From assembly GCA_051362555.1 (NCBI GenBank), contig CM120648.1, positions 3,158,587 to 3,222,586 of the forward strand: a stretch of DNA of 64,000 bases, written 5' to 3'. This stretch comes from Lingula anatina (taxonomy: Eukaryota > Animalia > Brachiopoda). A model generated the notes under the pieces. The model saw only the letters and a list, made by a program, of their open reading frames with translations, ran no database searches and was not told where the DNA came from. Both the position numbers and the translations under genes were made by a program. Of the stretch, positions 16,385 to 56,000 are shown piece after piece; the stretch's first letter is position 1; each line of letters opens with the position of its first letter.

Positions 16385-23975
<7,591 letters not shown>

Positions 23976-26062: not shown

Positions 26063-27980
26063 TTAACCCACGAGGGGTCCTGTTCCCTGAGAGGAGCACT
26101 GAGTGGCAGAGCAGGGGTACGTTGGTCTGTCCGTTGTCGTGCGAACAGGACAGGAGACGCACACCGTTTTTTTATAGCTGATCCCCAACCAGCTCTTGAA
26201 CCTGGTATTGACCTCCCATGTTGCGCTGACCTCCCCGTCCCCAAGCGGTATCCCCTGCTTGAAGCCACAAGCACACTTACTGCCTTTCAAAGCGCTAGAG
26301 GTAGCCACCTTCTTCGTCATGACGCACGTATGAGCAGACCAGTCATCGAATATGTCATCGGGGCACGTGACGTCATATGTTACCCCAGCAAAGTCTATTT
26401 CAAATTGGGCCTCTTTTTCCCAAAAGTATATCGGGAACTGCATGTTACGGCAACTGCACTCGGAAAAGATGTTAATTGGGCGGACCGTAGATCGGGCAGG
26501 GGCAGGGGAAAACGTGTGGGAACTTGAGGGAAGAATTGGGCCTGGTGTCCCCTTCGTCACCCCGGGCACTTCAGTGGGCGATGTTGGAACCGAGATTTTG
26601 CCAGGTTTTGTCACGCCAGTGACGTCAGGAACAAAGGCGTTTCTACCATAATATGCAATAGTTTGTCGACAATTACCGGCAGATGGCGACTGCTGTGGTG
26701 GTTGGCTGGACGTACCATAAACGGCTAGTTTCAGGTCATACAATATGCCTATAACAAATGACATGAGATACATTAAATTCCAGGCCTTTAGCACTAAATT
26801 TAATTTTAATTATATCCCACTAAATAAAAAACGAACTTAACGCCTAACGGGTTCATACTTCTTCTTCAGCCTTCACAAAAAAAAAAAAAAAAAAAAAAAC
26901 TAGCATATTAGTTTTATATTCAATAAGACTTAAGCTTTGAATTAAGTCTCTTGGTCGTTGGCTGCCTTATATTACAAGTATTCCGTCCTTTACATATATG
27001 ACCTGGACATGGATCGCATACCTGAATGACCTTGACCTGGATACAAGCTGTCCACGTGCACCTTCCAGGCGCCTTGTGACCGCTCTCCCCAAAACTGGAC
27101 AGTTGAGACGTTTAGCTCAAGGTAGCGAGACCATTGGTCATTTGGTCGTCCTGGTATCAATATGGACCGCGTTCCCGAAGGAGATTCCAGGTCCACTTTG
27201 ACGTAGCCTCTCTTGGTGAACCTGACCAGCACGTAAACCTGCACGTGTTCTACGTAACTGACGTCACAATCGGCTGGGATTTCCATACCCAGGACATCGG
27301 GGACAGTGCTACACCGGTTAAGAATCAGATATGTGGATGTTCAGGAATGCGAATAATACATTTTAATTTAATTTGGGAAGTACAGTATAGCAATGAAAAC
27401 CGTTCACAGATACGGAAGAACAGAAGTAAGAAACCGGTTGCACCTGTATATACTGTAGTGATTTACATGTTGTACGTGAGTGCTTATGAATAATAGTCTT
27501 TTTTTCATTAAATCACAGAAAAGGAAGAATTGACCACCATGCACCGTCTTAAAATCTGCGCCAATTGTGTTTCCTTTGAAAGGGAATCATAGGACCAAAG
27601 ATCGTTGTTTTGATTTGGACTATCCAACTTACGTGTTGATGTTTCGTTTACTGAGGATACACATCGTCAAAGACGGTACATGTTTCCAGTTCTCGGCGAA
27701 CTTTACCATCTTTTCTGCGTCCAGTAAGCCAAACCCGAATGCACTGCTTACTGTAAGATAAAATGTTTGTTAACACATTAACTCAGTGGTCAGCGGCGGG
27801 CCGGGAGAGGGACACAGCAGGACCCGGTTTCGCGAAAAAAATTAGTCTGGTTCCCTGGCTTAACTTAATTACATGTGCCAACGTTACATGGTCGAATGCG
27901 CACATCTTAACTTATCAGGAACAGTGTTACTGCCCTCTCGTGGAAATCCTAGTCAACTACTGTCTAGGGTAGGGAATTAA

Positions 27981-28014
<34 letters not shown>

Positions 28015-30206
28015 CAGCAAGCCGTGCGCCCCCAAACTTAGTTTCGGAGGAATCCCCTTCTGCCCAGGACAAATTCTGAACTAAACGAAACAAGTCCAAA
28101 CCAAGTCATTTAGCATCCATGTTTCATAAACGGTACAGTATAAATATAATTAGTTGTTATCGTTATAATAAAGCGAGTGCATAATGAAGCGAGGCGATGT
28201 TTTACCCTTGCCCCCTTCCCACGAGATCCAGGATCATCCATTAGTGGCATATCTAATTTTAGCACTCCTTTAACAATTGCAAACTTCATATGGTGTCATT
28301 ATTTAATAATTCAAATATTTTAATCCGAATCATTACAATTTAATAAACTTGAAAAAATTTGAAAATAAAATAAGAAAGGGGGGGGGGGGGGGGGACCCAG
28401 TGGACCTAACCACGTGTGCAAGTATAATATTGGTCAGTTCACCGTACCTTTAACTCCAGCGCCATTCGTATTCCACAAGTCCTCCTGACCAAACTGGTTA
28501 TTGGCCGTGGTCACTATCAGGTGCTGGACATCACGAGCGGTCAGTGAGGGACTGGTTGAAGAATGATATCCTTCCGTTAATGTGATGATTGACTTAACTT
28601 TACTTAAAATGTCTTAAAATCAATGGGCAAGTACTAAATAGAATTAATGGCATACACACACAAGTAAGTGCCACTGGCTGAAACATAACGATCATTTAGT
28701 GAGTTTATCTATCGCCCAAGTGGATTATAGTTAACTTACTTAGCTTCCAAAGCCAAGGCAAGGATGCCCGCGGCAAGTGGTGCCGCAGCAGACGACTCTC
28801 CGAAGTCATCCAGACAAGAACTTGAGTACCCCGTACCTGGAGCGATCTGGAAATATATAGACTCCATGCTAAGAATATGATACCTGTACATGTAAATATC
28901 ATACTCACAACAACCATTCGATGAAAATGCATACAATGAAAATATTTAGGAAAATACGTGCGTAGGTTATGTCAACAATACGAAGTGTGTGTGTGCGTTT
29001 GTGTGTGTGCGTTTGTGTGGGTGTGTGCGCATTTTTTCTACAATACAATTTTTTTACAATAATATAAATATAACATTTAAATACAATTTTCTCCCAAGTC
29101 CAGTCATCGGTAGAATCTCGCGAGAACGCGGTCGCCATCATGGCCCCACACTGTTCCCCATTTGTCAACTTTTCTCCGCGTGACGTCAGTCCACTGACTG
29201 GGATGGTGTAGATGCTGTTGGCAAACCCGTCATATGCGCAGCTGTCTTTGCCGCCGGACCCGCCATTACCGGAAGCGAACACATAGACTGAACCCTTTCC
29301 GTTGCGTCCCTGAAAAGAAAATAGAGAAGTAAAATGATGCAAAAGTATGCTCGTGAATGTCAGCACTATGCCACATTATCACAACTGACACAAGGATTTA
29401 TTTTCACCGCCAGCGCAATGTCACATGATCACAGCCAGCGCAATGTCACATGATCACAGCTAACGCAATGCGCAATGCACAATGAGCCATTGGGGTGGTA
29501 ATAACTCTAAGTTTATCTGTTGTTTAAAACTTTCTAGTTGTTTTGAAGGAATAACAGGGCGTTTAAGATCATTTTCACAACGTACACGAACCCTGCTATC
29601 ATATAACAACATTCTACCTTGATCGCGCCATCTCTTAAGGCCGCCGCAGCCATCGGTCCTATCTCCTTAAGATCGAATCCCGTTCTGGCCATACCCCAGC
29701 TGCAGCTGTAGATGCTGACATCGTTCCCGAAGGCACCCAGAGCTCTAGCCTCCATGAGGTCTGTCGTGGGGGAGTCTCCGTACAGGCGGATGCCAACTAT
29801 TCTGGCATCAGGAGCCACGCCCACTCCACAGACAATGTTAGCAGCGGCGGCAATTATACCTGCAGCGCTGGTGCCGTGACTGAATGAAAAGTGCGGGTTG
29901 ATTTGATTTAAAGACCGTGTTTGCATTTATGATAGGACAGCCATTCTTATTTACTATAAAAGGTTGTCTGATCTGTGTTGGATAGTTATTTTTATATACG
30001 TCATGATAATCTGACCAAGCTGAGTTAAGAAATGTTAACCCGTCTCAATAATTGCTCAACAATATTTATTATAAGCATCCCTGTAAGAAATAGACAATTG
30101 TGATATCTTACCTGTCACCAAAATTGGGATCGGAAATACCTTATTGGTCTTTCTGGAGGTCAAGGCTCAGGCTCAAATCCTAGAAATAACGAAAGGTAAA
30201 CAAATA

Positions 30207-30260
<54 letters not shown>

Positions 30261-30591
30261 GTGTGTTGCGAGTGTGTTTATGCCATCCGTTCTGCGCTCC
30301 TGTATGCATAGCTGCGTAAATTGCGTGTTAATAAGAAAATTTTCTCTGCCAGATTCAGTCAATGCTGATTTGACAAGAAGGTGCTGTTCAAATGTATATT
30401 TATGCGTTACAACTCACTATTTTGTCGCTCAGGTCTCTGTGAGTCGAAAGCACGCCATCGTCGACGACAGCCACTGTCACGTTCTTCCCTGTTCTGCACA
30501 GTGACCATGCCTTAGCTATGTTTGTGTCAAGCGTCTTGCCGCTGTCCTGCGAGACAATAAAGCGATACCGTATTATATATATATTCAATGC

Positions 30592-30644
<53 letters not shown>

Positions 30645-31489
30645 GATACCGTTAAAGGAAACCACTCAAATTCAAAATTGGTATCTAAGTTCCTAACCAG
30701 TTTGAGTACTTTTATCTATGAGATATCTCTAGAAACCCTCTCATTAAGTTGCCGTCAGTCACAAACACCAACTATTTATGAATTTTTGTAGAACATTATA
30801 ACAAAATAAATATTTATCAAAGTTTAATGTCCAAACAATGTATATCTACGTATCAATAAAAATACCCTTAAGACACCAGTCCGAGCTCAATAATAATGAT
30901 AATAAAATAATAACAATAGACAGAGAGATAGCCATGTATTTTGACAAGTGTACAATACAGTAAGGACGTTCAATTCCACTCCTACCATATACCACCGTTG
31001 GTTGTCCCATCTTGGGTCTGCTATGTTGAACGTGCCGGAGGCTGACCTGGCAAACAGTGCCCTTGATTCAGTTCCCTGTCCCTTCACGAGGCTGAGAAGA
31101 TCGAAACACAAAATGTATCCTGTTTTGCTACATTGTACGTACGTGTATCGAGGTAGTGTTAATTGTGATTAAAGGTGCATGACTACCTTTCATGTACAAA
31201 TGCTTGGTTTTTTTCTACTCATTTTTTTTTCATTTGCGTTTGGCTGAGAATAATTTCAAGCGACCTGAAACGGTTACGCACTCTTTATCAGAACACGTGC
31301 TACTTTTAACTATTAATCTGTGGTTAGGTCATTCTAAAAATAAAGCAGGGATTAAACATTTTTTCCAAAACAATGTTCTCCTCAAATGCCAAATTGACCC
31401 AGCGATTCAAAATCATACCTTAGTCCTAGGACACAAAACACCATTATAGTAAAGTTGACCACACCGTTTGCCATTGTTCGCTGTTCCAT
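26063..31489 (-). CDS. PC-A: divergent kexin/furin-family (S8B) proprotein-convertase-like gene with signal peptide, S8 catalytic domain, P domain and Cys-rich tail. It has no prodomain and one in-frame TAA (possible null allele, young pseudogene or sequence error).
   Basis: Exons (-): 31489-31419, 31091-30986, 30546-30418, 30179-30112, 29879-29618, 29309-29085, 28846-28740, 28551-28448, 27750-27633, 27308-27022, 26748-26063 (2163 nt, phases consistent). Motifs VAVVDDG, HGTSAAG, CGVGVA, ASGNGG, ESSAAAPLAAG, RDVQHL, FGFGLLDA, VEHVQV, SPSGTRS, FWGE..QGAW. TAA at 30143-30141. Confidence 0.88.
30211..30256. repeat. (CT)n microsatellite
   Basis: Pure CT run in a PC-A intron. Confidence 0.9.
30594..30640. 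repeat. (AT)n microsatellite
   Basis: Pure AT run in a PC-A intron. Confidence 0.9.
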
Positions 31490-32516
31490 GTTTCAACCGT
31501 GAGATACGATAGATCTCTTCCATCTGGCGCATATGACCGCTGCTAATATAGAAGTCGGTTACATGAATTGGAAGCGTAGGTGTGAATTGATCATATTGCA
31601 TTTGTTTCTCTATGCAGAACATGCATGTTCATTAGTGCACTCAAATGATGGATCCTGGGTGGGTGGGGGGGATGATGACTGACCACGTACCCCTCATAGC
31701 TTTGAAGATAACCCCTATTCTCATCTATCCCTCTCTTTAAACCAGTAAATAAGCGACATGAGTTAAAGCCAATCAATTCAATGGAAAAATGTCCTCGTGT
31801 ACTTATTTAAATATATATAAGAGAGCGAAGCGAGATACTCCTTTTTTATTTTACGCTCCCTCCTCCACTCCTTGTTTTAGGTATATCCTGGATCATTTGG
31901 TGTAACGGGTGAAAAGTTGCTTCTGGGCGTTTGTTGCTTGTTCCGGTTGCTTACAGTCTGTTCAATATATACAGTGATAGAAAGTAAAATGTGTGTTGTA
32001 AAGTAGGTAAAATACAAAAGGGGTACCCTTTGTAACAATTCACTGTTGGTTTAGAGAAGATGCCTGTATGTATGTGTATGACAGTAAAATGAAATTTCGT
32101 AAGACCATAGGAAAATTGATGCAGAAAGGGACTTTTCTAAAAATGAACCAAAAAATGTCAGTTGAGAAAGGAGGGAAGGGACGAACCCCCCCCCCCCCCC
32201 TGTTTAAGGAATTAACAGCCCTGATATGCCACCAGCACCTTTGAAGTCACGATTAACGCTTAATACCACGAACTAATATTTTTTATGGACATATTGCACA
32301 ATTATAATTGAAGCCACTTCTTCGGTAGATCCTGGATCAACAAGGACACGAGGATCACGACAGTGCGAACTAGTGCTGGAGATATAAAGACGTGGGTGTC
32401 GATACAGCTCAATCTGTCCTCCCGTTTGCCAACAGATAAGGAAGCCACAGAGCTTACACGGTAGCAAACAGGTAACTTGTGTGGATCTCAGCAACGAAGA
32501 AAGAGTCAGAGAGAAG
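31490..32516. promoter_or_regulatory. Candidate bidirectional promoter between PC-A and PC-B
   Basis: About 1 kb separates the divergent start codons. TATAAA lies at ~32384-32389, about 130 bp before the PC-B ATG. Confidence 0.45.
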
Positions 32517-35500
32517 ATGGTGTGGTTCTTCGCACTATGGTCGTTGTGCTTTATTATTACTGCCGAATGCAGGTAAGCCGAGGGATTAAATTTATTCTTA
32601 CACCAACGACCGATGTTATACTGTAGTTTCAATGATTTTTTTTCTGTTTCTTTTTTTTTTTTTTTTTTTGTGGGCATTTCGCAAAAGATTTTTCACAATA
32701 TTTGATGTATAGTTCTGGAACGACAGTTATTTAGGAGAAAAAGATGCGTTTTTAGGTACACCCAAATTCGAATCTCTTAATATTTTAGAGTTATTTAAAT
32801 TTTATTGTTATCTATATTTTGTCTTAGTTGTGGCGGAGTCCTGCGTTGTAGGAGGCTTCCAAAGTATATGAATCTTTTAGGCATGAAAACGTGTTGACTA
32901 GGTCTTCCAATAACCAACAACAGGATACTTTGTTACTCTTATTAAATTTTGCCTTGTGGAATTTGGGTTTGTAAACGTATCGATAAAAAACATAAAAATA
33001 AAACCAAAACTGTTTTTAACGGATATAGGAAACTGCCGGGCGGTATATGTTCCTGTTCCACGGCCCAGTTAAAAAAAAAAAAGGTATCCTGCTTTCAATA
33101 CTGTTTCGAAGAACATATGAGCAAAGTTGGTGAGAATTGCTCATTCAGTTATGTCAACAACATAAATTGTGAGCCAGCCATTCGTAAAAAGTTTCGTTAC
33201 CAGCATCGCAAATTAAAGTTGACTTCGCATAGTCGGCTATCTGATTTTAGACATCTCAGCCAAGTCTTAGTCCTTGTGTGAAGTCTGCTACAACAGATTT
33301 TCCCTTGACTTTGACATGCATGAAAGATAATACCTGTAGAGCTGTAATTTGCCTCATTTTCTTACAGATATCCATACTACAGGCCTTCTTACACCAACCA
33401 ATGGGCTGTAAAAATTCTTGGAGGCAATGAGGGGGCTAGGCGCCTCGCCATCAAATATGGGTTTGACTACGAGGATAAGGTTAGTAATTATAATTACAGT
33501 ATGGGGCAGAAATTGTTGAGTATTTATTTCATCAGAAAGAAAGTACAATATTATAGACCTAAAGTAATTTGGTAGGGGATTCTCGCTAAATTGCCCTCCG
33601 TTTAAGTAGCTTACATATCTGGCACGCCTAATGAAGCTGCTAATAGTTAATTACCCCCTAACAGCTTCAGTAGGCGTGTCAGACAAAAAAAATCCCCTCC
33701 GCTAGATCGAACAAGGTATGGGAATGAGGTCTTAGTGATGTAGATTCAAGGAACATTAAAATAAGAGCAATCCTCGGCCAGAATGGGCTCAGAACTGTAA
33801 TTGGGTCAAAAAAACCCTGTAATTAAGTTGCATAATAATGGGTCTTATGGTCATTTTTCGGTCCCCAAAGCTTTTAACCTGAACCCACCCATGCAGTGTA
33901 AATTTAAAATCAAGTGAATATTACTGAAGGATTTCAAGTTATGATTCAGTTCAATTCAATTCAATTCAAACTAAGCCATCTTATACCATGCGATCTATCT
34001 ATCTAAGTATCAGTGGGCGGCCGGAGGGATAAGTTACACTGTTTATGGTGACCTGATCGTAACCAGGTCACTTGTGAAGATGGGGTATATGTACCCTCTG
34101 CCAGGGTGGCAGATATTATAGAGAAAAATGGGGGGAAAAAACAAATAACCGTCAATTTATTTAAAGACATATCTGTGATTATCTTGTGAAAAATCAATCT
34201 GTCGCCCTGGTAGAGGGTAAGGCATATGTGCCGTGTTCAGTCGAACCAACTTCAGTAACAACACATCTTAAGTCTCACAACCAAAGAAACTATGCCATAT
34301 CATCCTTTAAGCTGCTTACTTGATTATGTTGATTACGGAGTCATGACATTTAGTTTACTAACCACGATGTGTCAGATAAGAAAGGGCTGTAGTATGTAAG
34401 ACGAGAGCTTAAGACAAGGTTAGACGATCGGATAGGAGTTTATATATTACAAGAAATGCCCAATTCATAAGCAGAAAGGGCGCCATTTTGAAGAGAGCAC
34501 CTTACCTAGGTTAAAAAAAACTGGCAACATTTTCAAGATTTTTTTTGTCCGTAGGTATTACTTTCAGACTAATGTGATAATATGGTCTAAAGTTTCAGCT
34601 CTGATCAATAGCAGTCTCCTTCCCGTTATAAAATGCAGACAAAAGAGTTCCTAAACTCTCACCTCATTACATTTGTTGAAAAATTCACAATTTTGCCTTT
34701 GGAAACTCGATCGCCTCCTTTTCCTTTTCCATATATCAAAGTAATACTGTAGGGCAAAATACTCGTATATCAACCAATCCGAATAGTTCCAGATCCTCCT
34801 CAGTGTTCCTAATCTACCAAGGCTGCATTTGATATTTGGAACGATCCCATCTCTAAAAAAAAACGCCGTATTATTACAGATGTGTATTTCTTGATATTCA
34901 TGCCCAGACAGGAGCGGATCCAGAAATATTTGAAGGGGGTGTTATTTAGGCATGGGAGTGCTTGCGGGTATGAAACCTACTTTTTAATTGTTACCTATGA
35001 AGTGGAATATAATATATTATATCTATAGATATTCGAGGACATCTATTCGTTCACATCATGTTCAAACTCCATCACCAGAAAGACGCTACCGTCCATCGTA
35101 AACTGAGTGAAGAAGACAGCATAAGTAATTAAGAAGTCTGAGACGTTTTTCCTGAATCATATATGCATTCAAAGAGTGAAGTTCAATATAACAATATATA
35201 ATCAAACACAACTAAATTATGTCACTTCTGTTTTCTAGTGTATTCAATCTATCATTCCCGTTCACTAGCCAGGTATGTGCCTTCGTCATTTTTCAATTAT
35301 TCCCAGCGAAGGTACCACATACCATGTATGCCACAAGTGACTTTGCCTTTAGGCACGTATGCAGTAAACAAAGCCAATACATGTTTCACTTTTGCAGTGG
35401 ACGCAACAGCAGACAGCAGTCAAAAGACAACTAGCGAAATATGGAAATCTCAACGTGAACGACCCATCTTGGTACTACCAGCAGTGGTACATGGTAAGTT

Positions 35501-35741
35501 TGACCTTTGACCTTCAAGGTTGACCTTGGGGAGTGTGTCAAGCGGTTCTGGGTTTGACAGATAAACTTTTTGGCAGGTCACACGTAGAAGAGTGTGAAGC
35601 ATATGCGTGCGTATGTGCGTACATACAGTGTACGTAGGGATTTCAGATTCACGTATACACGTACGATGCATTCAGATACCAGTAACAGCGCTTTGTGTTT
35701 TCAGTATTGCTCGATACTGCGAGTACCACACGGTCCACTTA

Positions 35742-35783
<42 letters not shown>

Positions 35784-38700
35784 GATGATGATGATGATGA
35801 TGATGATGACGATGATGATTTCAGGGCAGTGGGAGGAATCTAGACAGTAAGATCACACAAGCTTGGTGTATGGGGAAAACTGGACAGAACGTTCTTGTGG
35901 CGGTGGTAGACGACGGCGTGTGGTCTAGGCACAGAGATCTCAAAGACGCAGTGGTGAGTATCGTGCCACCCTTCCTGGGCTATTCACTGTCCCTAAATTC
36001 CCAGACATAAAATTTTCATGGCAAATCTGACTGTGTACTTAGTATGTATTTGAACCATAACTTTCATCAGTTGGTTAAGTACATGTAGTCTATTTGCTGC
36101 AGAACAGAGGGCAATCTTCTTGCCTACGATGGATATACAGTTGTAATACGAAAAAGTTTTGTACGGCCAACTTAACAATAACCATTTAAAGAAAAGCAAA
36201 AAAAAAGTCAATACATTATTTAAGGTTACAAGCCTTGACTCATATCAAACGCAATGCTGCAATTACAGAATTCGATTTTTTTAAGAATCTAGATAAGAGT
36301 TACGACTACCAAAGAAACTGGGCTGGATCATCCGATCCCGGGAACCTGTGGAGCGACAAGTGAGTGACATGTACAGTCGGGTGAATAAGTAACTTTCCGA
36401 TATTATCCGGATAGGCCTACAGTATTTTAATCCCCATGTATCTGTGATGTTACAACTAAATTCCATGTCATTTTAAACCGTCAAAACATCTAAGCGGATT
36501 CAGCATTCAGCCCTTCCCAAATGAAGAAAAAACACACTCTAGCTGTGAGTGTAAAAGATATTGCTTTGTTTTGTCACTGGGGGGGGGGGGGGGGGGGGGG
36601 GTCAGTGCAGACTTCATATTTTGTTAATTTCTTATTATCTAATAGAAAATATTATTAAGTTGTATAGAATGTAGTTAATTTGGTTAATTTGGTATTTTAT
36701 ATATACCAATCTTGTTTCAGTCATGGTACCAGCGCTGCAGGCATCATAGCCGCTGCACCTAACGGAGTATGCGGGGTGGGCGTGGCACCCGGGGCTAAAA
36801 TAGCAGGTAGGAGACTGCTGGGGTGTATGAATCGGCTGGCCCAGCTTTGGTTACATTCAAGCATAACTTAGGTTGGTCCAGCGTTGATTATAATGCATAG
36901 TATTCCTAGGGTGGCACAGTGTTAATTGATACAGCATTACCTTAAGGCCCTAGGTTGGCATACCGTAGGTTACCCAGCGTTGCCCACAGTTGGCTACAGC
37001 GTGCCATACAGTGCGTTGACCCAAAAATTGACCCAATGCTTGCTAGGGTGTCATATGGTATTTGACTGAACATCCAACTTAGGGGCCACAATGAGGGTAT
37101 GAAAGAGAATAAAGTCCAAAAATGTTGAACAAATTTTCTTAATCTTTGACGAACTTTCAATTTTCTGCTACAGGTATACGTCTCTATGGAGACAACCCTA
37201 CCACTGATCTCATGGAGGCAAACGCTCTGACGTCATCCATGTATGACGTCAGCATTTACAGCTGTAGCTGGGGGTCTGCAAGGACCGGGTTTGACTTAAA
37301 ACCTCTTGGAGCACGTGCAGCTGAGGCCCTGCAGAGGGGGGCCACACAGGTACAGGATGGCCCCCAGTAGGGGTTGAAAACTTAATTGTTATTCGTCTAA
37401 AAGAAGAATTCCTGAAAAGCTACTTATCTTTTCCAATTCAGACCTTAAAAAGGAAGGTACATCCCGTAAACGTTAACGATTGTGAATCCCTTAAACGATC
37501 CAGCTTTTCCCAATGGCGTAGATGACAAATTCCAAAAGCATCTCCTTTTAGGGTCGAGGAGGCAGGGGGTCCATATACGTGTTCGCTTCGGGCAATGGCG
37601 GCTCGAACGGGGACAGTTGCGCTTATGACGGGTTTGCCAACAGCATCTACACCATTCCGATCAGCGGAGTGACAGCGGACGGAGAAATGATGTCCAGCGG
37701 AGAGCAGTGCGGGGCAATAATGGCGACAACGTTCACGAGGGATTCCAGTAAAGACTGGACACCGAATAGAATCGTAAGATCATGCTCTAACAATAAGCTG
37801 TTATGCTGGATACCTTTAGTGTGATATTTTGACACAGATAATATTAAGCTTTTGACAAACGGGTTTCAGGAGAGGTTTTACTGAGTTTGAAATTAAAATC
37901 ATAAGACTTCACAATACTATAAGGTGAAACATACCCCAGAAACTAAGGTAAAATGTGAACAAAAATTCAGATTTGTAAAAAAAAAAAAAAACGGAAGTGA
38001 ATAAAAGATAAATTAAGAAAAAATAGATTAGCATGAATGCTCACTGCACTGAATCTACCGGATATTGGTATAATAACTGAAATATTTTCCTCGAAAAATT
38101 TCCAGATTACACCAGGAACCACAGGCAGATCATCTTGCACCAGCGATTTTGGGGAGACCTCGGCGGCAGCGCCCCTGGCGGCTGGTATAATTGCCTTGGC
38201 GCTGGAGGCGAAGTAAGCACAGTATGAATAAGCACAATGATTTTTTTTACGATAGAGGGTTTTAAATCATTTCAGCTACATGTTATCAGAAATGACGCGA
38301 GTTATTACTGTTATTGCTATTGATTTGTAAATCTTCATTAATTATCTTATTTGATTTTAACATAACAATGAGAAAAAAGATGCTTTACCTTCATAAAGTA
38401 AATAGATAAATATGTGTTTTAAGTTTTAAAAATGTAACATATAATAGGCCTACTAATTCATTCTTCTTTTCTGTTTCAACAGCCCTCGTCTTAGTGCCCG
38501 TGACGTGCAACATCTGATCGCAGAAACTGCCAACAACAACTTTGGTAGAGGCAATCTCTGGTCCTGGAACGCGGCAGGGAAAAAAGGTGACGTCATAACT
38601 GTACACGCTCCTTAAGCCCCCCCCCCTCCCCTTTACACTGGACGACGTTCTTTCTGCGTCCCGAAGTACGGCCCCGTTTGAGAGTTTAAAAAAAAGTTGT

Positions 38701-40249
38701 TATTATTTTTTCCATCCTATAATTTCTGATTGTTTGTATGTGTTTTTCTAGTGAGTCGTGCTTTCGGTTTCGGTTTGCTGGACGCCGAGAAGATGGTGCG
38801 CTACGCTGAGAAATGGCGATCAGTACCAGCCTTAAAGTCCTGCGAGGTAACTCTGCGCAATATTAACAGGTACAAAAGTAACAAATATATAGAGATAATA
38901 TTTATAATTCCATTCTTGGGATCTTTCTTTTGCTGTAATATTTGCAAAATATGTTGTTTGGCATGGTCTGTATGGTTTGCCACAATATTAACAGTGCGAA
39001 TGCTCCAGTAAAAGAAGGCCTAATTACACGTATAACCTCATTCTCCTAATCTTTACTGTAATGTTGGCAAGATTGTAAGTTTGGTATTGTGCAGCGTAAA
39101 TTATTATATTATATTATATTATATTATATTATATTATATTATATTATATTATATTATATTAAACAGAACCATTCCTGGAACCGTGTCCCTAGATCTTCCA
39201 AGCTGGAAATGCGCTGTCAATCACGTGGAGCACGTGCAGCTGTACGTGTTGACGAAATTCACCAAGCGCGGCTTTGTCAAGGTCAACCTGCGTTCCCCGT
39301 CCCGCACGGAGTCCGTCATGATCCCCGGTAGACCCAATGACCAGTGGTCAGCGTATCTGGAGCTGACAGTGTCCAGCGTCCAGTTCTGGGGAGAGCAGGG
39401 CCGAGGCACGTGGCAGGTGGTCATCGATAGCCTGTACCCTAACCAAGGCCATTCTGGTAAGGTGGACAAATTTTGAGAAGATGGTTGAGGTGGCGACGTT
39501 AAATTTTCTTGTTTGGATATACATGTACAAGCATTTTGTGATATTGATAGTAAGCTGCATGCCCAAGCCAAACAAAAATTCAATCAGTATTTTTTTTACT
39601 TATAGTTAGGATCCCCTTACCCCCTTTTAATATCTTAAACGTTGCCTACAAGGCCCTTTTCCAATAAAGTTCATCAGACAATTTTAAGGCTTTTTTCTCA
39701 GAAATATTTACATACATTCCTATGATATCCTCGTTTGTAGGTACCGTGTACGACGTGAAGCTGGTAGTTTACGGAACCCAACAGTCCCCGCCAAGTCAGA
39801 CGCCATCTTCTGTCAACAGCGGGTGCGCCAACCAGCAGCAAGTGACGCTACCACCAGTCACCAAAGCCACTGTAAAACCCACTCAACCCCCTGTCACCCA
39901 ACGGCCAGTGACATCCCCATCCTGCTCGTGCAAGACACTGACCAACCCTTACTGGGGGTCGAATCTCAAAGTTCAGCTCCAGCAGGGTAGCGAGATCTAC
40001 GAAATCCAATGCCCGCAGAACATCGTGAGTTCGGATATGTCGATTGACTGCCAGATGAAGAAGAAAACGTACACAGTTCAGGGCAGCAGCTGCGGATGCG
40101 ACTTTAGCCGGTGGAGTTACAATGGGGCTTCGTGGTGGGTCACCGTTGGCGGAGAGAAGTTCCTCATTTCCTGCACGATAAGCTCACCCTGGACAATGGT
40201 CAGTTACCCCTGTCGGGGAATCAGGAACAGTTCGCCGTTGATTGGTTGA
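32517..40249 (+). CDS. PC-B: divergent kexin/furin-family (S8B) proprotein-convertase-like gene with signal peptide, prodomain (exon 3 disrupted or shortened), S8 domain, P domain and Cys-rich tail; no transmembrane segment
   Basis: Exons (+): 32517-32572 (MVWFFALWSLCFIITAEC), 33368-33479 (YTNQWAVKILGG..KYGF), 35029-35097 (end uncertain), 35398-35493, 35825-35953 (VVDDG), 36286-36359, 36721-36806 (HGTSAAG), 37174-37349, 37552-37773 (ASGNGG), 38106-38212 (ETSAAAPLAAG), 38483-38586, 38752-38869, 39167-39456 (P domain), 39741-40249. About 715 aa if the 35097 donor is used. Confidence 0.9.
35743..35819. repeat. Compound (TAT)n(GAT)n microsatellite abutting a PC-B splice acceptor
   Basis: The run ends about 5 nt before exon 35825. 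Confidence 0.9.
39101..39160. repeat. (ATATT)n pentamer microsatellite abutting a PC-B splice acceptor
   Basis: The run ends 6 nt before exon 39167. Confidence 0.9.
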
Positions 40250-43813: not shown

Positions 43814-46800
43814 ATGTACAGACACAGATGTGTCTGTACATATAGCCATCACCTGCGTCTGTCGTCGCCGTCGCCGTCGTCGCCGTGCACTTTTACCGAT
43901 AACACGATAAGTGGAAAACCGTTTTTTCTTTTGGTTTGAAACTTACAGAATTGATGAATATTCATAATACGCAGGTCAAGTTCGAAAATCAGCATGATCG
44001 GGCCATTTTTAGGGTAATTATGCTGTTTTTTCACTTTTTTCAGCATATATGCAGCACCGATAACACGATAAGTGGAAAACCATTTTACCTTTTGGCTTGA
44101 AACTTACAGAACTGATGAATATTCATAATACGCAGGTCAAGTTCGAAAATCAGCATGATCGGGCCATTTTTAGGGAAGTTATGCTGTTTTTTCACTTTTT
44201 TCAGCATATATGCAGCACTGATAACATGATAAGTGGAAAACCATTTTACCTTTTGGCTTGAAACTTACAGAACTGATAAATATTCATAATACGCAGATCA
44301 AGTTCGAAAATCAGCATGATCGGGCCATTTTTAGGGAATTTATGCTGTTTTTTCACTTTTTTCAGCATATATGCAGCACCGATAACACGATAGATGGAAA
44401 ACCATATTACTTTTTGGCTTGAAACTTATGAAACTGATGAATATTCATAATACGCAGGTCAAGTTCGAAAATCAGCATGATCGGGCCATTTTTAGGGAAG
44501 TTATGCTGTTTTTTCACTTGTTGATATTTCCCTGTAAACTCCCAAAGGTTAAGCTCTCTGCTAGATAACATAGTGTCCATAATAAGGAAGCAGTGAATAG
44601 CAGCTTCATTGGAATTATATTTTTGTTGTTTTCTTTTTAATTTTTTCTCCAACACTGGCATTTTTAAGATGTGATTTTTAACGTCTATCCACCTGAGGCT
44701 CTGCACATTTTCAGTATTTCCACATAAGCAGTTGTATTGGTATTTATGTCTTTAAACACGCTGTAATATTATTTTATGCACTGTCATCATTTTTATGTAC
44801 AGACACAGATGTGTCTGTACATATTGCCATCACCTGCGTCTGTCGTCGCCGTCGCCGTCGCCGTCGCCGATCATGTCGCCGTGCACTTTCAGCGTTAACA
44901 CCATAAGTGGAAGACAGTTTTACTTTTTGGTTTTATATTTACAGAGCTGATGAATATTCATAAAACGCAGGTTAAGTTCGAAAATCAGCATGATCGGGCC
45001 ATTATTGTAGAATTTATGCTGTTTTTTCACTTTTCAGCATATATGCAACACTGTTAACACATTTCAAGGAAAACTGATAGGCCTGTTGTCATGAAACTCA
45101 CAGGAGTAATCAATCTTACTAAAACGCAGATCAAGTTCGAAAATCGGCTTGATGGGGCCACTATTTTAGTAGTTATGCTGTTTTTTCACTTTTCAGCATA
45201 TTTGCAACACTGTTAACACATTTCAAGGAAAACCCATAGGCCTGTTGTCATGAAACTCACAGGAGTAATCAATCTTACTAAAGCGCAGGTCAAGTTCGAA
45301 AATCAGCATAATCGGACCATTATTTTATAAGTTATGCTGTTTTTTCACATTTCCTCAGATTCAATTCTTAGGCATGTTAACAGTCTCATTATTTAATTAA
45401 TAAGATACGTAAAAGTGTTTGTTTGACATTTCCTGCATCTTTACAACATTGTTAGTTGATTTTGTAAAAATGATGGTAAACTTGTTATCGTGTATTGTGT
45501 AATAAGGTATCAAAAATGGAAATAAACTCATATCATTGCAGTTTGTAAGATTCAATCATTCACTATGTTCAGAAACTCAGAATGGAGGAAATTGGACATT
45601 TGACACTGTTCTATTGATATTTTTCACATCTCATCAATTTTCTTAGTTGATCATATAAAAATGGCAGTAAACTGTTAATTTTGTTTTATGTTAAAAAAGT
45701 GTTAAAAATGGAAATAAACCCATTTCAGAACAGTGCTGTCTTGTTTACATTTTGGCATTTTCAAGGTGTGACTTTGAAGTTCCATGGGCCTGAAGACCTT
45801 TGCTAGTCACATTTTCTGAATATCCATAATACTAATATTTTATCATTAAAAATTGATGGTCATTATGCTGTTAAACGTTATGTAATATTGCATCAAAATT
45901 TGGAAAAAAAATATTTTGGGCACTGCTCCCATGATGACCATTTAAGAAAAATCATGTCACTTACTGTTCTCAAACTTACAGGAAAGAAACACGGGACTAA
46001 AATACAGCTTCAGTAGGCAATGCAGTGTGTTTGGTAATTCTTTCTGCTAGTTAAACAGTTTTTTTTTTTTTTTTGTGAAAATTTAATTTTTCACATATTG
46101 GCATTTTCAAGGTGTGACTTTGAAGTTCCATGGGCTTGAAGACCCATGCTAGTCACATTTTCTGAAAATCCATGATATGTATATTTTATTATTAAAAATT
46201 GACGGTCATTATGCTGTTAACCATTATGTAATAATGCATCAGAATAGAAGAAAACACAATTTTGGGTGCTGCTGCCATGATGACCATTATGGGAAAACCA
46301 TGTTACTGATGATTGCCAAACGTTCAAAAAAGAAATACAGGACTAAAATGCAGCCTGAGTTGGAAAAGCAGTCTGATTGGCTTCTTTTTCTGGAAGTTAT
46401 TCATTTTCAAAGTGTGAACTTGAACTGCCATGGGCCTGAAGCCTTATGCTTGTTACACATTTTACTTACATTGGTATTACCTGTTGAGCATAATTAAAAT
46501 TTGATGTTGAATTTGCAGTTTAACATAATGTACTTTTGCATCAGAATTGACAGTAGCCTATTTTGTGCATAGTTATTTCCTGCTTTTTGTCTGTACATTT
46601 GACAGCTTTGCTGCCTTGTTCATATATTGGGACTTTCATCATGTGAATTTTAACTCTCATGGTCCTGAAACTGTAATCTTATTGAAGGGGTGGATTGAGA
46701 CCATTTTCTGGGTCTCCTGGAAGACAGTCAGATTTTAAAGTTTATATTTACGGGTTTCTGTTGGAAGACCATCAAAATGGAGGATGGATCAACAAAGATA

Positions 46801-53044: not shown

Positions 53045-56000
53045 ATGACTTCAGTGCAGTCTGGCGACTATACTCTGCTGTCACAGTATGACACGGGCAA
53101 CGAACTGCTGCCATTGGAAGATGGCTACCTGGATGACCTTGACTCCTCAGGTGAAGGTCACGGCTCAGAATCTCCAGAACTGTCAGGACATCGGTCAAGC
53201 GAGGAACTGTCCTTAGGTTCCACAGATGGCAATCAGCAACCACAATCCCAGTTCTTTTTTTCTCTATCGCAGAGTGTCTGTTATACCAAATTTTGTACAG
53301 TCAGTCGTAAACTTGCAGTGTTTCTTCTTACCAATGTGATTGTCTCTGTGTTCACCATACTGTTAGGGTTAAGCCTCACAGGAGGGTTGCTATACTACAC
53401 TATATTTGTTCACCAGCCAAAGCTGGTCATTGACAAGTCGCTGAATTCTTTCAACATTCCCAATCATGAAGTGTCAATACGAGCTGACGGCCTGCGCACT
53501 GCCATTGAGGATATGTATTCCAAGAGCAGGCGACGGCGAGATCTTCAATCTGGGGGCAAGACCCAGCTTAACCAGGCTGGAATGCTTGATGAAATGCTCT
53601 CGAGAAAGAGACGGAATGCTCAAAAGTTTTCTGATATGACATTAAGTGATGGTGGGACAAAGTTACGCCACAGTCGCCATGTTGATTTTTTTCTTGATTA
53701 TTATATACAGGGGAAAACCAGTAGAAACAATCATGTATTAAAAACCAGAAATGTGAGTAGAAAGAAACGAAAGTCACCAGGAGAGATTTTCTATGAAAAA
53801 CACTTTGAACCACATCTCAAGCGAGAACAGAGGAGTGCAGAAGGTGGGACATTTCTGGGGCGTGTCCTCAATCGAATACGACGTCACACATCAGGCACAG
53901 GCTCGCAAGTGGTCAACTCATATGAACAAGTGCATCTGACTTGGAGGATGATGCTAGTTTATATCGCCAAAGGTGGGGACGAAAATATATTCTCCAAAGA
54001 CCGCATTGAGACGGTCCACAAAATAGAGAAAGACATCATGTCCAATAGTAAGTTTACGGATTTTTGTTGGAGGTACATCAACCAGTTAAAGCAAGACCCT
54101 GCCCTTGCTCAAATCCAGGGCTGCATGCCTCCAAATTCTCTCATGACCTACTTTTATCCGTCAGTGACACCAAATGGCGATGTGCACTATGACGGACTTG
54201 GAAATAATATCATTGAGAATGTCACTGATGGACTGAAGAGGGCAATGAGTAAGGAAACATTCTATTGGTTTGTTGATGAAACCATGAACCATACGAACAT
54301 GAAGAGTAGATATCTTAGGACGGAAGTTTACTTTGGTACCCCTCTCAAAGGTGGGTTTCCACAAATGCTCCCATTCAGACTGTTGAACTCAAGATAGTAA
54401 ATATTGTGGCCCAAAAATTAGAAATTTAAAACTCAAGAAAGGTGCAATTTTCTGGGTCGCTTTAGATATGGTCCACTTTGGGTCTCAACAATCACCAAGA
54501 CGATTACCGAAATGAGCTCAGTTCTTTAAATCGCTCTCTTTAATGGTACATTTAAACAGTAATTAAAGACTTTTGTTTCAGGAACAACAATTAGACAGTT
54601 GTCTTTGTAAAAAAGAAGCTCTGTATTTTCATTTTCAATATTCAGGCTATGCATCTCACATGGACAGAAGACCAGAACAAAATGCAAAATTCAAGGAGTT
54701 TGTTGTAACCTATGTGAACAAATTGGACAGGAGTTCCACAAGGTGACTCATTCCTTATTACTAGAACTTACCTGAACCAAGACATTGCTCATATTGCCAT
54801 TGTTTGGAATATGTGCACATTGATTTAAAAAAAAAACTTTTATCGCTTAGTTTCTGTAAAATTTCCTCTAACTTTCTCGACAGAGTCATTGGTCAATGTG
54901 ATATGTTTTTCAATTGTGCACATTCTTTTCAGTATGCATATTCTTTTCAAGGAATTGACTCTAAATGCATCTCAACATTTCAGCAAAGTTCAAGTGCTCT
55001 ATGGCGGCAATGAGATATTCGACTATGAGGTTGACCAGACTTTCAAGAATGACATGTTTCTGGCCATCAGTTCTGCCTGCGCCATCTTCATCATGATGCT
55101 AGTGCTGACCTCTTTCTCATTATGGCTCTCTTTCATTGGACTGCTCAGTGTTGTGATGTGCTTTCCAATGGCCTTATTCTTCTATCATGTTGTCTTTGGC
55201 ATCGAGGCTCTTGGAATACTTAATGGTGCTGCCAGCTTTCTTATAATTGGGATAGGTAGGTGCTGCCACCTTTCTTTCAATTTGTGTAGTTAGGTGTTCC
55301 CACTTTTGTTATATTTGTTAATATAGGTGATGTCATCTTTCCTACAGCTGAAATAGGAAGGTGCTGTTACCTTTCTTATATTTATAAATGTAGGTGCTGC
55401 CACCTTTTTTGCAACTGATATGGTTAGGTGCTGTCACCATGCTAATAACTAGTTTAGGTTTAAAACTTGTAGTCTCTTAGATTGAAAAATATTTTAGAAA
55501 TTGATGTGGTTGAATTTTCTGTAATTTAATCTTTCAAATTAAAATCTTTCAAATTATTTTAGGTTGTGACGATGTGTTTGTGTTCATCAACACATTTCGT
55601 CAGGCTCACCACATGAAGGACGTAGGAACCAGATTCATCCATACTGTCACCACGGCAGGACTGGCGACATTCTTTACTTCCTTCACCACTGCTGCAGCTT
55701 TTGCTGCAAATGTGCCATCTTCTGTGAGTATTAAATATAGTTTTATTTAGGTGTTGTATTATATTGCTGTTTTATATATCTTTTTTGTTATCATCATTTA
55801 TATATCATTAGGGGTTGCTTCACTTACTGGAAATTGTGAGAATTTTCTTCAGAGAAGCCAATTGCCTTACATAGGGTTTGCCTTTCTGAAAAGCAGGGGT
55901 GTGGGGGAGGTCCCTGCTGAGTAACAATATTCTCTGTGACAGTATTCTGCTTTAGGATATTTGTAACTGAAAAATACTTCTACTTACAAGCCACATTTTT

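Follow-up and report, generated by a model that had tools for sequence, protein, structure and literature searches.

What does a kexin-type protease cleave when an acid of its S1 pocket has been replaced by arginine? The question is raised by a window of Lingula anatina DNA, the whole stretch of 64,000 nucleotides analyzed here (contig CM120648.1, positions 3,158,587 to 3,222,586, forward strand). The DNA is eukaryotic and intron-rich, and it carries a head-to-head pair of kexin-family genes, PC-A (minus strand) and PC-B (plus strand). According to the available text of the Seidah review (PMC8551645), kexin-like convertases are specific for basic residues, and the non-basic convertases, S1P and PCSK9, are both built on other scaffolds. 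The sequence evidence given below suggests that PC-A and PC-B are kexin-family proteases that probably cut after the aromatic residue of an R-x-L-(F/Y) motif and not after Arg. The two genes were modeled as follows.

32517..40249, plus strand: PC-B gene, 13 GT-AG exons, 692 amino acids; signal peptide, coreless prodomain, S8 domain, P domain, Pro/Thr linker, Cys-rich tail
32517-32572, 33368-33479, 35398-35493, 35825-35953, 36286-36359, 36721-36806, 37174-37349, plus strand: PC-B exons 1-7
37552-37773, 38106-38212, 38483-38586, 38752-38869, 39167-39456, 39741-40249, plus strand: PC-B exons 8-13
26063..31474, minus strand: PC-A gene, 11 GT-AG exons, 715 codons, prodomain reduced to its tail
31474-31419, 31091-30986, 30546-30418, 30179-30112, 29879-29618, 29309-29085, minus strand: PC-A exons 1-6
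28846-28740, 28551-28448, 27750-27633, 27308-27022, 26748-26063, minus strand: PC-A exons 7-11

The PC-B model was 97.4% identical to L. anatina XP_013412170.1 (P0001) and 98.1% identical to XP_013412169.1 (P0054), which are two distinct RefSeq models, and PC-A and PC-B shared 58% identity. An S8 catalytic domain with the Asp/His/Ser triad and the oxyanion Asn was present in both; both genes have P-domain exons, and the P domain (PF01483) was matched in P0001 with an E value of 1.8e-11. Both products are likely secreted proteins. The start codons lie about 1 kb apart, head to head (31474-32517), and a shared promoter, or a prodomain supplied in trans, is possible. A Pro/Thr linker and a Cys-rich module form the C terminus (39741-40249, plus strand; 26748-26063, minus strand). 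The Cys-rich module had no match in Pfam, and modules resembling it seem, by eye, to be repeated several-fold in Lingula P0002. Elsewhere in the window, an ORF at 23289-23975 (plus strand), convergent with PC-A, matched the C-terminal part of TMEM26 (PF09772, E 2e-19). Another ORF at 53045-54397 (plus strand; 450 codons) had no Pfam match but encodes one hydrophobic stretch together with a number of furin-type polybasic sites, and it may resemble Dispatched-type proteins. A tandem array of ~160-base units at about 43900-45330 was noticed as recurring reading frames.

In furin, P1 is contacted by Asp258 and Asp306 and P4 by Glu236 and Asp264, and Gly366 is situated at S1'/S2' (available parts of PMC2820236, Table 1, and of PMC8453481). 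Furin numbering is given here as 1p8j chain position plus 107, anchored at His194. The pocket features of the two genes are listed below.

37266-37310, plus strand: PC-B pocket loop SWGSARTGFDLKPLG, read from the window
29701-29657, minus strand: PC-A pocket loop SWGMARTGFDLKEIG, read from the window
37281..37283, plus strand: PC-B Arg at furin position 258, also in RefSeq XP_013412170.1
37299..37301, plus strand: PC-B Lys264, furin numbering (S4)
29684..29686, minus strand: PC-A Arg at furin position 258; no differing letter in the spliced reads of X7-X9
29666..29668, minus strand: PC-A Lys264, furin numbering; codon unvaried in the reads
37612..37704, plus strand: PC-B Asp301, Asp306 and Glu331, retained; putative partners of Arg258
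38154..38162, plus strand: PC-B Glu366 to catalytic Ser368 (FGETS; Gly366 in furin)
28790..28798, minus strand: PC-A Glu366 to catalytic Ser368 (FGESS)

As evident from HMMER alignments, the loop aligned without a gap with furin (1p8j) and kexin, and MAFFT L-INS-i gave the same register. The Asp of the GFD motif thus occupies position 262 and not 258. A register with this Asp at 258 was absent from both kinds of alignment and was discarded. The sequence-only reading, which had placed Arg at position 258 and Lys at position 264 in both paralogues and had proposed a multiple alignment as a check of the register, was confirmed in this respect. An assembly artefact as the source of Arg258 was ruled out by the RefSeq paralogues and, for PC-A only, additionally by reads.

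Arg258 was found in 4 of 391 domain matches (394 proteins fetched), all from this Lingula group, and in none of the 387 others; Asp was present at this position in 369 of the 391. The four Arg258 paralogues are PC-A, PC-B, XP_013391412 (P0002, with its near-copy P0055) and XP_013391428 (P0056). They are 47-58% alike, and each retains all four catalytic residues. A canonical furin is present in Lingula as a separate gene (P0337). Three of the four paralogues carry Lys264, and P0056 instead combines Glu264 with Gln236. PC-A and PC-B retain the catalytic residues Asp153, His194, Asn295 and Ser368, and with Asp258 changed to Arg their S1 acid pair, Asp258 plus Asp306, is incomplete. The other pocket acids had been thought to be conserved. 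This was correct for Glu236, Asp301, Asp306 and Glu331, but Asp191, Glu230, Glu257 and Asp259 are lost, and Gly366 is replaced by Glu. Among the 391 domain matches, Glu366 occurred in all four Arg258 paralogues and, outside them, in just two genes, one from an octocoral and one from a ribbon worm. Relatives from octocorals, the ribbon worm and the sea spider also included genes with Glu, Gln or Lys at position 366.

The final prodomain residues of PC1/3 occupy the S1-S6 subsites of furin, according to the available text of PMC12405487. Other convertases cleave the prodomain tail in cis while it occupies their cleft. If PC-A and PC-B do likewise, the tail would report the specificity of the enzyme. 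The tail register was set by counting eight residues past the conserved Gln (furin Q99).

35425..35442, plus strand: PC-B tail R-Q-L-A-K-Y, self-cleavage register
31052..31063, minus strand: PC-A tail R-A-L-F, self-cleavage register
33480-35397, plus strand: prodomain core missing from PC-B, Leu-aromatic tail retained
31418-31092, minus strand: nearly the whole prodomain missing from PC-A, Leu-aromatic tail retained

In this register the Lingula tails read R-A-L-F (PC-A), R-Q-L-A (PC-B), R-S-L-F (P0055) and C-E-L-F (P0056), and furin reads R-A-K-R. The R-x-K/R-R prodomain end typical of PCSK1-7 was absent from both PC-A and PC-B. In the RNA reads of run X7, which stems from a related population several percent diverged from the window, 6 nucleotides were missing from the PC-B tail (23 + 17 of 40 reads), and either placement of the gap gave R-Q-L-Y. 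Because the X7 reads give Tyr, the Ala of the PC-B tail is peculiar to the haplotype of the window and RefSeq. A small P1 residue had been suggested earlier; its sole support would be this Ala, produced by a length difference of two codons.

A complete PF16470 prodomain was not found in PC-A or PC-B, and it was whole in P0055, P0056 and P0117. PC-B matched profile positions 1-28 only, below the cut-off, and its exon 2 was joined to exon 3 without a prodomain core (3 reads; the RefSeq model concurs). PC-A passes from the signal peptide directly to the tail, nearly the whole prodomain being gone (2 reads). A search for a hidden prodomain exon in the window by tblastn returned PC-B exons 2 and 3 only, and X7 read depth over 34374-35375 was nil, which argues against a hidden PC-B prodomain exon. 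Since the prodomain fold is mostly lost in PC-A and PC-B, their tail register depends on the Gln anchor. The loss of this chaperone is the main weakness of the aromatic reading for PC-A and PC-B; the full-length paralogues are unaffected by it.

Relatives were gathered by homologue searches plus a profile-library search and were found in stony corals, octocorals, amphioxus, the sea spider Nymphon and the ribbon worm Tubulanus, together with another Lingula gene. The clade was defined from an initial FastTree tree and then retested with the pocket columns removed. So pruned, it formed a single branch with an SH-aLRT of 96 in a quick tree (28 of 57 rows) and a support of 95/94 in a careful tree (15 of 31 rows), and cnidarian, protostome and amphioxus sub-branches were each recovered. 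Long terminal branches are common, and some mutual attraction between clade rows may have occurred. Forcing the Arg258 genes into the furin group was rejected (AU p 1.8e-6), and by this test PC-A and PC-B as furin duplicates were ruled out. The sister group consisted of divergent mollusc kexin-like genes with Asp258 and Asp306 retained, P0052 (Solemya), P0085 (Dreissena) and P0199 (Mytilus). Catalytic residues are missing from some clade members, namely Tubulanus P0145/P0319 (T194/K295/G368) and the octocoral Dendronephthya P0115 (R194), which are likely pseudoproteases as judged from these residues. Short prodomains were apparent also in some coral members (P0065, P0066, P0335).

The clade was compared with the groups of Tao et al. 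(10.1101/802215), whose available text counts six ancestral kexin-like groups and describes PCSKX, an invertebrate group in sea anemone, spiralians and amphioxus. Long-branch duplicates are noted there for amphioxus, and more than one furin-like gene for Lingula. Neither 'substrate specificity' nor 'D258' nor 'S1 pocket' is used in that available text. Constraining the clade to join the presumed PCSKX genes, whose membership is a guess, was not rejected (AU p 0.12). These presumed members (Owenia P0090 and oyster P0136, again a guess) differ in having Asp258/Asp306 and R-x-K-R tails, and they were placed elsewhere in the tree. A shark sequence, P0186 ('PC3-like endoprotease variant B'), stood beside presumed PCSKX in the FastTree tree (0.985) and was unresolved in the quick tree; its placement would bear on the claim that vertebrates have lost PCSKX.

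Pocket and tail were then set against each other across the clade. The clade set comprised 47 rows, alleles and isoforms counted; 12 unanchorable rows were dropped, leaving 35. The residues at 258/306 were D/N in 29 of the 47 rows, D/D in 5, R/D in 4, D/S in 4 and other pairs in 5. P2 was Leu in 30 of the 35 anchored tails, and P1 was Tyr in 18, Phe in 4, Leu in 3, Arg in 3, Lys in 2, His in 2, and Ala, Met and Pro in 1 each. Of 35 reference rows picked by hand, 26 were anchored, with P1 Arg in 25 and Lys in 1. The register was examined in a second way: the last position of PF16470 is furin R107, and ungapped extension of the Pfam match to this residue gave the same P1 (F/M/Y/R/L) in all 8 of the clade proteins examined, each of which has a whole prodomain. 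Because the candidate self-cleavage sites of the clade relatives end in Leu-Tyr/Phe, aromatic cuts are predicted for PC-A and PC-B.

None of the 30 anchored clade rows whose P1 is non-basic had the Asp258 plus Asp306 pair. Basic tails accompanied the intact pair in an amphioxus gene ending in Y-L-R (2 alleles) and in the dead Tubulanus gene (2 isoforms). A single basic clade tail occurred without the pair, that of Nymphon; this gene, P0064, is a counter-case, having P1 Arg despite Gly258. Another is Xenia P0139, an unanchored row with a basic-looking junction despite Asn306. In an unselected set (194 of 318 rows anchored), rows with an intact pair had 163 basic and 6 non-basic tails, four of the latter appearing to be one residue out of register, and rows that had lost the pair had 23 non-basic and 2 basic tails. 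The association between S1 and P1 is largely one clade-level event.

These tails also bear on the idea that charge reversal has made S1 specific for Asp or Glu, for which granzyme B is the analogy and which takes its appeal from an Arg standing in place of Asp at the position of P1 contact. An acidic P1, as the sequence-only reading had envisaged, was found in none of the 35 anchored clade tails, and the P1 residues of the four Arg258 enzymes are F, F, F and A/Y. Moreover, Asp301, Asp306 and Glu331 remain, so the pocket is not net positive. Asp/Glu specificity is therefore scarcely credible.

For the S4 subsite, Glu236 was present in 21 of 21 clade tails with a basic P4, and P4 was non-basic in 9 of 9 clade rows without Glu236; five clade tails kept Glu236 with a non-basic P4. 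The comparison contains only 4 independent pairs (2-3 in the same direction, none opposite; p 0.25-0.5) and is not significant. Such a correspondence between P4 and Glu236 is expected if the tail occupies the enzyme's own S4. An acid at position 264 showed no association with P4 in the clade and was ruled out as its determinant. The proposal of a charge-reversed S4 is weak: P4 Arg persists in PC-A, PC-B and P0055 alongside Lys264, and clade-wide a basic P4 goes with Glu236 and not with an acid at 264, albeit in too few independent pairs.

The tails would reveal nothing of the enzymes' own specificity, which could then be broad or still basic, if another protease released them in trans, either site-1 protease acting at R-x-L-x or furin acting at an upstream K-R. 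R-X-aliphatic-Z is indeed the S1P motif in the available text of PMC8551645, and three S1P-like genes are reported for Lingula in that of 10.1101/802215. PC-B and P0055 have a K-R ahead of the tail, in several tails K-R lies three residues upstream, and R-Q-K-R occurs in some corals; these upstream basic residues, however, align with the P6-P4 basic residues of furin itself. In addition, 14 of the 35 tails lack a basic P4 and 9 of these still have P2 Leu (for example C-E-L-F, N-E-L-Y and Y-K-L-L), and P4 tracks residue 236 of the enzyme's own chain. Cleavage in trans is thus considered quite unlikely.

How Arg258 could produce an aromatic preference is proposed as follows. Arg258 would pair with the retained Asp306, Asp301 and Glu331 in place of the substrate guanidinium. 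Asp258, which we take to be a ligand of the S1 calcium in furin as well, is gone, and Arg258 probably also replaces that calcium. By plugging and neutralizing the S1 floor, Arg258 would leave a shorter, neutral pocket fitting Phe or Tyr. Phe or Tyr is found at position 227 in 36 of 47 clade rows and in 0 of 35 references, and together with the loss of Asp191 it may render S2 suited to Leu. Glu236 alone could still hold the P4 Arg, which would make Lys264 a side change. Corals and amphioxus may arrive at the same outcome through D306N. The suggestion that the Arg fills or charge-reverses S1 was thus upheld insofar as Asp258 is lost and the pocket rewired, and Arg258 may indeed fill S1.

Filling of S1 could also be taken to mean a self-occluded or one-shot enzyme, in which Arg258 occupies S1 and which cuts its own tail or nothing and acts by binding, as PCSK9 does. 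An Arg beside Asp306, Asp301 and Glu331 would mimic a P1 Arg, dead members exist in the clade (Tubulanus P0145 and octocoral P0115), and the prodomains of PC-A and PC-B are eroded. On the other hand, the four Arg258 paralogues have kept all catalytic residues in spite of their divergence, D306N relatives without Arg258 have Leu-Phe/Tyr tails too, and PC-A and PC-B are missing the prodomain core needed for a lasting inhibited complex. We regard self-occlusion as unlikely.

An aromatic specificity presupposes genes that are intact, and the assembly contains one feature that calls this into question.

30141..30143, minus strand: PC-A in-frame TAA in exon 4, codon 110, in the assembly; TAT (Tyr) in reads

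RNA runs were chosen by species label. TAT was read at this codon in all four runs (10 of 10, 25 of 25, 27 of 27 and 2 of 2 reads), which rules out PC-A as a fixed pseudogene; the TAA is either a null allele or an assembly error. The predicted PC-A splice joints were seen in the reads, with the Arg258 and Lys264 codons unchanged. PC-A variants were analyzed from 19 of 36 difference rows, those showing the difference in almost every read, and mixed-letter rows, located mostly where paralogue reads cross-map, were dropped. The catalytic exons of PC-A had 17 variant codons, 13 synonymous, 3 amino acid-changing and 1 stop, and look to be under purifying selection by this measure. PC-B was well covered in X7, where the joints of exons 1-2 and 2-3 were supported.

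Nevertheless, PC-A and PC-B might be decaying duplicates whose pocket changes are relics of a formerly working paralogue. The stop codon in the PC-A assembly and the prodomain loss in both genes would fit decay, as would the finding that, among the variant rows listed, 10 of 17 variant codons in the N-terminal exons of PC-B change the residue and the fact that PC-B exon reads were lacking in three of four runs (X1, X3 and X4). Against this stand the Tyr codon and correct splicing in all four runs, one of which, X5, was identical to the window over the 30 letters of PC-A exon 3 displayed. Differences in the catalytic exons are mainly synonymous, and the full-length paralogues have Arg258 as well. 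Decay is very improbable in our judgment.

The aromatic reading was finally compared with known convertases. With the furin/kexin-like enzymes (PCSK1-7 and Kex2; S8B), PC-A and PC-B share the signal peptide, the S8 D/H/N/S residues, the P domain, a predicted furin fold and the acids Glu236, Asp301, Asp306 and Glu331, and the PF16470 prodomain is whole in the paralogues P0055 and P0056. They differ from furin by D258R, E257A, D259T, loss of Asp191, L227Y/F and G366E, by R-x-L-F/Y in place of the R-x-K-R tail, by shortened prodomains and by their position outside the furin group. A kexin/furin fold is predicted for P0055, which is 50-52% identical to PC-A and PC-B. Its model, built on a deep alignment, had a pLDDT of 80 and matched furin with an rmsd of 1.8 Å and a TM score of 0.93 by target; the catalytic and P domains were confident, and the tail (110-119) had a pLDDT under 50.

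SKI-1/S1P (PCSK8) has a motif, R-X-aliphatic-Z, resembling the R-X-L-Z cleavage predicted for PC-A and PC-B, but it is pyrolysin-like and without a P domain (both points from the available text of PMC8551645), whereas PC-A and PC-B have one. In the fold search with P0055, S1P ranked 49th at 14% identity, and the best matches were furin and kexin; the likeness to S1P would be convergent. PCSK9, likewise a convertase, processes its prodomain itself at a site whose P1 is not basic, as predicted for PC-A and PC-B. It differs in being proteinase K-like, in lacking a P domain and in remaining bound to an intact prodomain; the scaffold here is kexin-type.

The odds lean slightly toward the Lingula, coral, amphioxus, ribbon-worm and sea-spider enzymes being an overlooked ancient animal orthologous group with Leu-Tyr/Phe cuts, in which S1 was disarmed separately by D306N in corals and amphioxus and by D258R in Lingula. 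That reading, held with the same slight preference, includes the rise of an S1P-like motif on the scaffold of furin and kexin and the loss, in some members, of the greater part of the chaperone prodomain. No description of the clade's pocket, tails or specificity was found in the open-access literature, and its genes are currently labelled furin-like or PC1-like. Since each enzyme bears its own candidate substrate, the prediction is directly testable. If true, an aromatic-P1 group of kexin fold would break the rule that kexin-type convertases are strictly specific for basic residues, and cleavage-site prediction in precursor proteins of corals, amphioxus and brachiopods would change. The clade would also supply natural templates for single S1 changes, D258R and D306N, that redirect a furin pocket.
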